Shown here: positions 12,001-15,000 of the stretch, in pieces | Numbering within the stretch: position 1 is the stretch's first letter | Layout: every line of letters starts with the position of its first letter | From: a virus | Taxonomy: Duplodnaviria; Heunggongvirae; Uroviricota; Caudoviricetes | Direction: 5' to 3' (one strand) | Length of the DNA: 64,000 nucleotides | Virus record (IMG/VR): IMGVR_UViG_2718218139_000007 | Made by a program: the position numbers

Positions 12001-15000
12001 TAAGGTAATTTAACAAAGAGTCAGTTCCGGACTTTATAGTGTGCTCAGTTCATGGCCAAAAACGATTTCTGTGATAAATATTTTGAATATTATTTACAGG
12101 TAAATGGAGTGGGGCGCATGGATAGAAATATTACAATAGAGTATGAAGTATATGCCCGTATTGTATGGGCAGAGAAGGCAAAAACACGGTAATTCCGTGT
12201 GTTGCCATGATACCTGATTGGCAGAATAGTTGTTTGGTTTTGAGTATATAGTCAGCGTTTTTTGTTCAGTAATTGCCCCCTCAAAAAATAATAAAATAAG
12301 GTGATTATTTTTGTTTATTATTTAGTTTTTTTGTGTGTTATTTTATTGTTTTTGCGTGGTTTGTTTTTTATTGTTATTTCATTAAGGGAAGGTAAATTCA
12401 GGATGGCAGTCTGTAGATAATCGGAGGTCACTTATGCTACATGATCACGTGGCAGAATGTCTGGAGAAAAAAGGACTGTACCGGAGAGCAGCTGAACGAT
12501 GGGCAAAAGTGATGGTACAGCTAAGTGATGACCAGAAAAGAAAAGTGGCGGCACAGAAACGAGCAGAGTGTTTGCGTAAGGCGCGCCGGACTCCGGTTTC
12601 ACCGGTGAACCTGACCGAAATAAAACAAGCGGTCAACAGACTACATTCTGAGTTGGGAATGGGATTTGAAGAGCGGCGGGTATTCCGACGATATAAAGGG
12701 ACAGGAGAACAGAATACGTCCGGAAACGCGCGGTCAAAAAAATGCTAAAAAATATCTGAGAGAGTTATTGCCTGTTACCATAAGAAAAAGCGACTTTAGT
12801 GGTCGCTTTTTGTGTCATATATAAGTCGTTTAAGTAAACCTGTCTGAACAGGTGCTCTGGTCGTGTTTGTCTTTGTTGGGTACAAATTGAGAATATTTTT
12901 CATTAATTAATCTTCTTCTGCAGGCTTCAATAACCCACGCTGAAAAATTACCTGAACCTTTCTGGTCAAGAGCGATGTTAATTTGTTCAATCATCTGGTT
13001 TGGAAATCGGATGTTGCGGGTTGTTGTTCTGCGGGTCCGGTTTTTCGGTGACATTTTCTTTCCTCTGGTGACAAGCTATATGGCGAGGATTTTACATGGC
13101 CGTGCTTCGTACGTTACCGGGCAGAATCAAAACTCTGAATACCCGGCGGGTGAATGTCCTGAAGGGTGAACAGCGTCGGGTCAGTGGCAGTGCCCGGGTT
13201 TCCCTCAAGCGTCGTATCTGGCTGAGGGATGCCGGACAGTGCTGTCTCTGTGGGCGTGTGGTTGACCTTTGTGACAGTGAACTCGATCACCGCATTGCAC
13301 TTCAGTTCGGTGGTGGTAATGAGGAGACGAATCTCTGGACGCTCTGTACCGAATGCCATCGCCAGAAGTCAGTCAGTGAAACGGCGAGTGGTATGCCGGA
13401 CCCGACGCTGCCGGAGGTCATGGCAGGGCAGACGATATCATCGGACTGTGACCCGCCCCGGGGGGGGGATCATCCGGCGAAAAAAACGATCGCCCCGGAC
13501 ACCGCCCCCCGTCTCATGCAGAGAAAAAATTCCTGTTTCAGGCCAGTTAACATGTTAACTGGCTGCCCGGGCATTTTTGCGGTTTTTATCTTTATTATTC
13601 AGTTTGTTGTGCGAAAAAAATGTTAACTGGCTTTTTCAGCAAATGTTAACCAGGCAGCAGTTAACATTTGCGGCATGAGACGCCGGGAAAAATGGGCTGA
13701 ACCATACCCGGCTGAGTGCGTTATGGACCCGGGAGGAGGCTGTGCTGACAACGCAAAAACGAAAATTTGCGCTGGCGCTCATGTCCGGGAAAAACAAAAC
13801 AGCGTCAGCCATTGCCGCCGGTTATTCGGCGAAGACCGCCAGGATTAAAGGCTCGCAGCTGGCAAAAGATCCGGAGGTGCTCGCGTTTATAGCCCGTAAA
13901 CAGTGCGAAACGGTGGAGGTGGATGAGGTTCCTGTTTACCGGCAGAAAAAATCAGAGCAGGAGGATAAACCCCGTCGCCGTGAGGTGGCTGCAATACCAC
14001 AGCCGGACGAAAAAAATCCGGAGATGCCTCCGCCCGCGGTGATATCTCATGGTATTGAATATATGGAGGATGGTCTTCCCGATCCGGTGAAAGCTATGGG
14101 GCAGATCCTGGTGGAAAACCTGATAATTGACCCGAAACTGGCACTGGATGCGGCCTGGCGACTGGCGCAGTTCACACACCATAAAAAAGGCGATGCCGGT
14201 AAAAAATCGGCAAAAGGTGATGCCGCGAAAAAAGCGGCTAACCGTTTTGCGGTGCCGCCACCTCCCCGACTGGTGGTGAATAACCAGAATGAGGAAAGCG
14301 GATGATACCTGTATGGAGCACGGCATGTCCGGACTGGGCAGAGCGCCTGAAAAAGGGGCTGTCGATTATTCCGGCTCCGATTTATCCGGACCAGGCTGCA
14401 CATGCACTGGCGATTTTTAAACAACTGCGGATTGTGGATGCACCGGGTAGCCCGACATTCGGGGAGTCCTGTGCACCGTGGGTGTTTGACCTGGTGGCGG
14501 CCCTGTTTGGCTCCTACGATGCGCAGACCGGTGTTCGCCATATCAAGGAAGTGTTTATCCTTATCCCCAAGAAAAACTCGAAGTCCACGCTGGCCGCGGG
14601 GATCATGATGACTGCACTGTTACTGAACTGGCGGCAGGCGGCGGGTTACACGATTCTGGCCCCGACAGTGGAGGTGGCAGCCAACGCCTTCAACCCTGCC
14701 AGGGATATGGTACGACGGGACGATGATCTGGATGACCTCTGTCAGGTGCAGACACATATCCGGACCATCACCCACAGGGTGACGGACACCACCCTGAAGG
14801 TGGTGGCAGCCGATCCGAATACGGTGTCCGGTATCAAGTCCGTGGGGACGCTGATTGATGAATGAGGTAGCCTGAGTTTAACGGACACTCCTTCCTGAAA
14901 TAGAATGGCATCAGAAGGAGCTAATAATGAGCAGAAAAACCCAACGTTACTCTAAAGAGTTCAAAGCCGAAGCTGTCAGAACGGTTCTTGAAAATCAACT

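Follow-up and report, generated by a model that had tools for sequence, protein, structure and literature searches.

In phage HK97, an HNH endonuclease gene is the last gene before the cohesive end site (cos), and the genes of the terminase's small subunit and its large one, terS and terL, are the first after it. The HNH protein of this phage (gp74) stimulates cos cleavage, and the binding site of its TerS is an A/T tract covering +15 to +29 (PMC11331095). The location of an HNH gene beside cos and the terminase genes is established knowledge. Here, we describe the corresponding region in a stretch of 64,000 nucleotides from the IMG/VR virus record IMGVR_UViG_2718218139_000007, the whole of which is called the window below. 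Between its HNH gene and terS it carries a tract of nine G and a cluster of GTTAAC repeats. An earlier note, made from the sequence alone, had taken the HNH gene next to the terminase genes as a sign of cos-type packaging, and the HNH-cos-terS-terL context agrees with this.

The window resembles HK97 not only in this gene order but also, by prediction, in the C-rich 3′ overhang (...GACCGCCGCCAAA in HK97 and GGACACCGCCCCCCGT in the window), in a G9 run followed by ATCA 32-34 nt upstream of it and in an A/T tract after the nick. However, gp1, the TerS of HK97, has no Pfam match and is unrelated to the Terminase_2 TerS of the window, a GTTAAC array is absent from HK97, where TerS has one site of 15 bp, and the terS of HK97 begins 49 nt after the nick compared with 229 nt in the window. 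The TerL proteins of HK97-group phages (SfI, ST64B) are only ~22% identical. The closest relative found with mapped ends is the Acinetobacter phage fEg-Aba01, which shares a G tract (G6), the GGACAC motif, an overhang of the kind predicted for the window (CGCCCCCCAT), the A-tract and repeats (GTTAAA) starting from +34. It differs in its host, in a reading frame of 74 codons between the HNH gene and cos, and in its repeats, which are three direct copies of GTTAAA at spacings of 13 and 11 bp instead of a palindrome and a distal cluster. The cos of lambda (cosQ-cosN-cosB with R sites and a bend made by IHF) is alike in logic only: the nick is flanked on the packaged-first side by an array of TerS repeats interrupted by bendable DNA, and on the other side by a short possible termination element. 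Lambda has a 12-nt 5′ overhang, a gpNu1-type TerS, no HNH gene and other sequences, whereas a 10-nt 3′ overhang is predicted for the window. Phages 1717, BP-4795 and 2851 (Pankowvirus) agree with the window in gene order and in all five GTTAAC sites, but have an intact HNH protein of 121 residues and other G-tract lengths (G11 in 1717).

We consider it likely that positions 13452-13741 of the window are the cos of a packaging module that is HNH-assisted in the style of HK97 and makes 3′ overhangs. The parts would follow each other as HNH gene (with its natural end at the TGA 13449-13451), G tract, a conserved spacer of 34 nt, cosN, A-tract, repeat array, terS and terL. In the cosB-like array, two (A)ATGTTAAC half-sites would form the palindrome (+34/+42), and three more would follow beyond a T-rich, bendable stretch. 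A ring-forming TerS would bind it by its N-terminal helix-turn-helix domains and position TerL at cosN, where the two strands would be nicked 10 nt apart by TerL and the HNH protein, and packaging would proceed rightward from 13513. The G-tract block, on the last-packaged side, would probably serve TerL/HNH as recognition or termination element; since the 3′ edge of the tract is fixed, changes of the G number on the distal side would be tolerated. The features of the module are:

13460-13535, plus strand: conserved cos core block with the G tract, ATCATCC..CGATCGCC, GGACACC, the C-rich cosN and CTCAYGCAGAGAAAAAATTCC
13460-13468, plus strand: G9 tract, non-coding left boundary of the conserved core, its 3′ end 34 nt before the predicted bottom-strand nick
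13503-13512, plus strand: predicted cosN, 10-nt 3′ cohesive end CGCCCCCCGT, by homology to the fEg-Aba01 end
13520-13533, plus strand: A-tract AGAGAAAAAATTCC of presumed function, at +8 to +21 relative to the predicted nick and conserved in almost every relative
13542-13563, no strand assigned: perfect 22-bp palindrome, GCCAGTTAACA joined to TGTTAACTGGC, a pair of inverted half-sites whose GTTAAC cores start +34 and +42 from the predicted top-strand nick
13564-13617, plus strand: T-tract-rich spacer, TTTTT..CTTTATTATTCA, partly conserved in both TerS types (A and B, see below), a possible intrinsic bend
13618-13629, plus strand: third element, AAATGTTAACTG
13639-13671, no strand assigned: fourth and fifth sites, inverted repeat GCAAATGTTAAC - 9 nt - GTTAACATTTGC
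13742-14305, plus strand: terS, 187 residues, Terminase_2 (PF03592, Pfam E 8e-8), PHROG 641, present start GTG
14302-17221, plus strand: terL, split, with Pfam TerL_ATPase (PF03354) and TerL_nuclease (PF20441), one per half, E 4e-10 each

Predicted cohesive end and G tract

The cohesive end was located by comparison with fEg-Aba01, whose record is arranged by the virion ends and carries an annotated 3′ cohesive end. This end, 5′-CGCCCCCCAT-3′, was obtained by PhageTerm and confirmed by a heat/anneal gel (PMC7354433). With the slash marking the end, the joined ends read GGGGGG-35 nt-CGCCCCCCAT/CGCACGCAC-A8-TTCCC, with GGACAC preceding the overhang. The counterpart in the window, GGGGGGGGG-34 nt-CGCCCCCCGT/CTCATGCAGAGAAAAAATTCC, aligns base for base and unambiguously, and the overhang is therefore placed at 13503-13512, with predicted nicks after 13512 on the top strand and between 13502 and 13503 on the bottom strand. 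The two TerL proteins are 53% identical and the two TerS proteins, which belong to the same Pfam family, 30% over the full length (E 1e-14). For intact relatives of the window, a top-strand 3′ end ...GGACACCGC(G/C)CCCC(C/T)(C/G)T and a left end CTCAYGCAGAG are predicted.

Apart from fEg-Aba01, only the records of HK97, SfI and D3 were usable for ends. Records of Shiga toxin (Stx) phages are prophage-ordered, that of vB_EcoS_phi330 ends within terS and carries an uninformative note, and those of Burkholderia E354 and Pseudomonas BR123a end at arbitrary cuts near terS; all of these were rejected as guides. A presumed phiE125 overhang (GCGGGCGAAG) has no match to E354 and was not used. The end of HK97 reads G9-ATCA..-32 nt-CGCCGCCAAA, that of D3 GGGGTGGGGCGGG-30 nt-CGCGCCCCCA and that of SfI GGGGAGGGGCGGG-31 nt-TGCCCGCCCC, the overhang of the latter having been determined experimentally (PMC3636060). 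From the 3′ end of the G-rich block to the overhang, the distance is thus 35 nt in fEg-Aba01, 34 nt in the window, 32 nt in HK97, 31 nt in SfI and 30 nt in D3. This fixed distance between a G-rich block and a C-rich 3′ overhang makes it a shared signature of this class of cos sites. In multiple alignments, the core block of ~75 nt could be followed across Enterobacterales, Acinetobacter, Burkholderia and a satellite-like island, reading G(n)-..ATCGATCGCC-CTGGACACCGCGCCCCCTCTCAYGCACAGAAAAAATTCCC in the distant Enterobacterales loci.

The occurrence of one G9 in 64 kb is within chance (0.25^9 x 64,000 x 2 ~0.5, by our own arithmetic); the tract, which lies at 13460-13468 and not at 13458-13466 as given earlier, is significant because its position is conserved in relatives. 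Among 78 close IMG/VR loci, G8 (35 loci) and G7 (28) are found besides G9 (7), G10 (4), G6 (3) and G11 (1). A more distant set was obtained by a TerS-alignment scan of species-representative genomes, which gave 22 loci, 21 of them usable, with TerS identities of 38-49%. They come from Enterobacter, Atlantibacter, Kluyvera, Kosakonia, Phytobacter, Citrobacter, Erwinia, Pantoea, Serratia, Rouxiella, Buttiauxella, Proteus, Morganella and Phlomobacter. An HNH gene, its stop codon and then a run of G6-G9 were found in 19 of these 21 Enterobacterales loci; of the two exceptions, one (L091) ends 73 bp upstream of terS and the other (L106) has Ns at the position of the tract. Since the 3′ edge of the tract is in register with the nick, changes in length extend away from cosN. 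The G-tract block is probably a recognition or termination element for TerL/HNH on the last-packaged side, comparable by analogy to lambda cosQ. HK97 TerS binds only at +15 to +29, which makes the upstream G block likelier to be a TerL/HNH or termination element than a TerS site.

Further observations were made in and around the core. A direct repeat with 44-nt spacing (13470-13485 and 13514-13529, TCATCCGGCGAAAAAA / TCATGCAGAGAAAAAA) is present, and the G tract is complementary to the C-run of cosN (13459-13468 and 13502-13511, CGGGGGGGGG / CCGCCCCCCG, 33 nt apart); both hint at an internal duplication or a two-fold arrangement. Another inverted repeat (13505-13519 and 13673-13687) was discarded as due to chance or lineage-specific, being not conserved in the loci L114, L118, L127 and L128. 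In PPompW prophages (L122, 1146-2604), the IS110-family element ISEc20 has a G7 run on one side and a G5 run on the other. To its left is the context of a G8 at 7503-7510 of the window, to its right the cos G tract, and the ~5.9 kb between these flanks, with an esterase gene, lysis genes, PerC and HNH, are missing. Targeting of G runs by ISEc20 would be one explanation, a deletion between two G tracts another.

GTTAAC array and small terminase type

GTTAAC is found at 13546, 13554, 13622, 13645 and 13660, i.e. five times within 120 bp and in four elements. In all 64 kb there are 11 sites against 12.6 expected by chance, and for five in 120 bp the Poisson probability is ~6e-11, or ~3e-8 after scanning. 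The longer motif ATGTTAAC occurs six times against 1.9 expected, with five of the six in the cos region. The four elements had been seen before, together with a palindrome of 20 bp; they hold five sites, and the palindrome is perfect over 22 bp. The array spans +34 to +153, with all five half-sites on the first-packaged side of the predicted nick. In most of the distant relatives, the +34 position has GTAAAC, and the GTTAAC at +42 coincides in part with the terS start ATGTTAACAGC. Where terS starts with ATGCTAAC or ATGCTGAC, as in Proteus, Morganella, Pantoea and the window, separate GTTAAC/ATTAAC elements lie upstream, and fEg-Aba01 has non-coding GTTAAA repeats at +34, +47 and +58.

The helix-turn-helix domain of TerS comprises residues 1-56 and was modelled by AlphaFold with pLDDT >90. 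Residues 25, 32 and 35, which tell the two types described below apart, lie where its helix 19-25 ends and its helix 33-41 begins. A direct sequence match of TerS to solved structures was weak (E 0.25); the structural comparison by Foldseek was clearer, with the DNA-binding domain of the SF6 small terminase as best match (4zc3, target TM-score 0.84; 2cmp 0.81). In E. coli, two types of this domain occur, type A with AI[AT]AGY..KTAR[IV]KG and type B with AIEAGY..KSARCKG (E25, S32, C35). Loci of type A (the window, L114, L127, L128) carry five or six GTTAAC sites, and loci of type B (L115, L118, L123/L124, L125, L126) have ATAAACATGTTTAT, ATGTTTAT, ATGTTTAC and GTAAACAT at the same positions. 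All copies of the repeat switch together from GTTAAC to GTTTAY/RTAAAC with the type-B TerS, while the spacers diverge freely; GGCAGCRGTWAACATT is invariant in the alignment of both types.

The association was first seen in L114, L115 and L118, and the motif was then predicted from the TerS protein sequence in five more loci, all five of which fitted. The motif type follows the N-terminal domain of TerS only; HNH, the C-terminal part of TerS and TerL give conflicting patterns of similarity. The concerted switch of the motif with the TerS type therefore supports a cosB-like, TerS-binding role, and from the sequences compared the GTTAAC elements are most likely binding sites of the small terminase. 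Their earlier description as candidate TerS sites is in line with this, the elements being present and positionally conserved in related packaging regions and co-varying with the type of the TerS helix-turn-helix. No support was found for a simple residue-to-base recognition code, as distant TerS proteins with S32/S35 adjoin mixed GTAAAC/GTTAAC sites.

Several TerS copies (P0023, P0004, P0027, P0039) are mosaics, with type-B N-terminal domains on C-terminal parts otherwise paired with type A, and some have in-frame internal deletions of the low-complexity linker (138-139 residues). A different combination is presented by an integrase-bearing island of ~9 kb in E. coli and Shigella (L133, 2446-10944; also L116 and L117), with a replication protein of AAA_25 or D5_N type and a faintly capsid-like protein of 307 residues. 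Its TerS homologue (162 residues, 45% identical) has 243 member sequences. The island keeps a G7 tract and the cosN core CGCCCCCCGTCTCAT, together with the divergent TerS and other repeats (AAGTTACAC, twice). Its sequence suggests a phage satellite that combines a TerS specificity of its own with a shared cosN.

It is possible, and we put it forward tentatively, that two statements hold for 3′-overhang cos sites of the HK97 type in general. The poly-G block 30-35 nt upstream of the nick would be a required third subsite, for docking of TerL/HNH or for termination in the manner of cosQ, in HK97, D3, SfV/SfI, Acinetobacter phages and many enterobacterial prophages. Specificity would come from exchangeable cassettes of a TerS N-terminal domain and a repeat array (GTTAAC, GTTTAY, GTTACAC, GTTAAA), swapped by phages and the satellite-like island on the same cosN.

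HNH reading frame and competing explanations

The following features describe the HNH gene of the window:

13096-13626, plus strand: HNH open reading frame (ORF) as read in the window, 176 residues, Pfam HNH (PF01844, E 4e-6) at residues 49-92
13410-13419, plus strand: deletion junction (10 bp), the tandem CCGGAGGTGT/CCGGAGGTCA having lost one of its copies, from pairwise alignment with phage 1717
13449-13451, plus strand: ancestral HNH stop TGA, out of frame in the window, 8 nt upstream of the G tract, aligned to CTGTGA of 1717

The ORF had been described as an HNH gene that runs through the G9 tract, and both the domain and the crossing of the tract are confirmed. It reaches the tract because of the 10-bp deletion relative to its homologues, which shifts the frame near codon 106-108; homologous HNH coding sequence extends from 13096 to ~13416, and in protein alignments the window protein departs from its homologues after ...PEV. 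The intact protein of phage 1717 has 121 residues and ends in ...DDIIGL*. An HNH protein of this length is found in 69 of the 78 close loci (~90%), the ancestral end being seen in 66-69 of the 78, and the single-copy allele in five. The deletion form is matched at >=99% by 80 of 1160 records from complete E. coli genomes, and the majority of the remainder have the longer form. HNH proteins of 14 other loci all stop near residue 121 with a short hydrophobic tail (IIGL, FVGL, FVAI, IVVI...), which is gone from the window protein, and every distant relative with an HNH ORF found has ~121 residues; in these relatives and in the close loci with 121 residues, the stop lies upstream of the G tract by at least 8 nt. 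In E. coli strain E2863, whose copy is within a stretch 100% identical to 13000-13800, the NCBI pipeline annotates an HNH pseudogene.

It had further been stated that the length of the HNH C-terminus depends on the tract. Within the frameshifted allele this applies, the ORF having 153 residues with G8, 176 with G9 and 151 with G10; it is no feature of the gene, as the homologues stop before the tract. Since the tract sets the ORF end only in this allele, the ‘C-terminus’ is translated cos DNA. The long C-terminus, not shared by homologues, would fit tract dependence but marks a pseudogene tail: judged from the alignments, it is an artefact of frameshifted read-through into non-coding cos DNA and not a phase-variable tail.

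With the tract taken as slippage-prone, the C-terminal extension of ~55 residues could be seen as a phase-variable switch on HNH function. The window ORF does cross the tract, the length of which varies from 6 to 11 among close relatives as in contingency homopolymers, and in the frameshifted allele the ORF length follows the G number. However, contingency tracts lie within an intact reading frame, and this one is intergenic in 69 of the 78 close loci and in all distant loci with an HNH ORF found, where ORFs of ~121 codons with the conserved hydrophobic tail stop before it. Moreover, read-through needs the 10-bp deletion, present in ~7-9% of copies only, what the extension translates is conserved non-coding cos DNA in which the palindrome and the predicted nick site lie, and the E2863 copy is flagged as a pseudogene. 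A phase-variable HNH is thus largely refuted and hardly conceivable at this locus. Alternatively, the tract might be a functionless hypermutable homopolymer or a hotspot of sequencing errors, for which its variable length among near-identical loci and the error-proneness of such homopolymers in assemblies would speak. We consider this unlikely, because Enterobacterales, Acinetobacter, Pseudomonas D3, SfI and HK97 all have a G-rich run equally far from the nick despite diverging flanks, and because its length varies on the side away from cosN, by which the register of the nick is preserved.

Instead of packaging sites, the GTTAAC elements could be remnants left by duplication of the terS 5′ end (ATG TTA ACn, Met-Leu-Thr), or else operators by which TerS or another protein regulates terS. 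The overlap of the +42 GTTAAC with the terS start ATGTTAACAGC in most distant relatives would fit the former, as would the ~190 extra bp between the +42 position and the present GTG start in the E. coli lineage, which are compatible with a history of insertion or duplication. We rate these possibilities as quite unlikely. Relatives with terS starts ATGCTAAC/ATGCTGAC keep separate upstream GTTAAC/ATTAAC elements, the three repeats of fEg-Aba01 are non-coding and start from the same +34, and all copies changed in step with the helix-turn-helix type of TerS, the spacers being free to diverge; autoregulation, in turn, would still imply TerS binding and be compatible with a cosB role. Headful (pac) packaging as in other Terminase_2 phages, with the repeats as pac site and an incidental G/C-rich block, appears highly improbable. 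It would be suggested by the N-terminal domain of TerS, which matches the SF6/SPP1-type small terminase of pac phages, but a dedicated HNH gene adjoins terS, TerL is HK97-like, the locus is homologous to the mapped 3′ cos end of fEg-Aba01 with a TerS of the same family, and the cosN-like motif is also found at the ends of HK97, D3 and SfI.

Some points weigh against the interpretation as a cos site with a TerS-binding array. The position of cosN relies on homology to a phage with ~50% TerL identity. Binding of TerS to GTTAAC is predicted, and the repeats and the TerS N-terminus are located within 300 bp, so that co-inheritance of these closely linked parts could yield part of the covariation. 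Distant relatives with the S32/S35 helix carry GTAAAC plus GTTAAC. The +42 GTTAAC of most distant relatives forms codons 1-3 of terS (ATG TTA ACA), and therefore coding constraint contributes to its conservation. In addition, it is in headful phages, SPP1 and SF6 among them, that TerS proteins of the Terminase_2 family are best known, and the function assigned to the G tract is a presumed one.

Prophage setting and meaning of the predicted cos map

The packaging region of the window belongs to a defective lambdoid prophage of E. coli, Pankowvirus-like (of the Stx-phage-1717/BP-4795/2851 type). Apart from its identity to E2863, the region 13000-13800 shares 95-97% of its DNA sequence with the Stx phages 1717, BP-4795 and 2851 and with many Stx1a/Stx2c prophages. 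It is present in ~1,250 of 5,426 complete E. coli genomes, often in multiple copies, and many Stx1/Stx2 phages are among the carriers. Around the packaging genes, the following genes and elements were identified:

from 10802: holin, late operon
from 11008: lysozyme, late operon, followed by Rz/Rz1
12434-12748: full-length PerC homologue (transcriptional activator family, Pfam E 4e-44), between lysis cassette and packaging genes
12830-13054, minus strand: YlcI/DUF3950 gene
14863-16126: IS3-family insertion inside terL, 1264 bp, orfA 100 and orfB 272 residues, 3-bp target duplication

The HNH gene adjoins cos and terS on the 5′ side, and the same order is seen in the 19 distant loci with an HNH ORF found. 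TerL belongs to the HK97-like family by its PF03354 and PF20441 domains, and tblastn reaches SfI and ST64B at ~22% identity. The insertion in terL and its 3-bp duplication were shown by BLAST against the intact terL of E2863; the terL of phage 1717 carries another insertion sequence (IS629). Since HNH is frameshifted and terL interrupted, the window prophage cannot package itself. The cis-acting cos appears intact by its sequence, and so a related resident phage could still package the element in trans.

A scan of 12700-13900 for promoters and terminators gave one weak minus-strand promoter-like match and no terminator, at or below the expectation from shuffled sequences; the palindrome and its T-run were not scored as a terminator. 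An Rfam search of 13300-13800 gave a match at chance level only (E 0.61). A cluster of tRNA-Met, tRNA-Lys and tRNA-Arg genes is located at 7180-7420, downstream of the Q region, as in late regions of Stx phages. The ORF 3′ of terL (within 17285-19221 of the window, 580 residues) resembles a fusion of protease and major capsid protein. Its counterpart in E2863 (within L002, 8028-10801) has 645 residues and is annotated as ‘major capsid protein’; the portal gene, annotated as frameshifted, comes only thereafter. A capsid-fusion-like ORF before the portal gene is an unusual order for an HK97-like head module.

A literature search of limited coverage revealed no paper on the cos of 1717/BP-4795/2851-type phages and no description of the G tract in HK97-type cos sites, which is weak evidence of novelty. 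The same applies to the cos map, the match of TerS type and repeat motif and the conserved G block, for which no earlier description was found.

Our analysis corrects an annotation trap, since the ‘HNH’ protein of 176 residues is a frameshifted pseudogene with a translated-cos tail and not a tunable protein. It also provides, as a prediction, a concrete cos map with nick, overhang, TerS half-site and three candidate specificity residues for an E. coli prophage family that is very common. This map is relevant to the range of defective prophages and satellites that can be packaged in trans by a resident Stx phage. Beyond this family, the G tract would represent an unstudied conserved element in the HK97 model system, for which an in vitro packaging assay exists.

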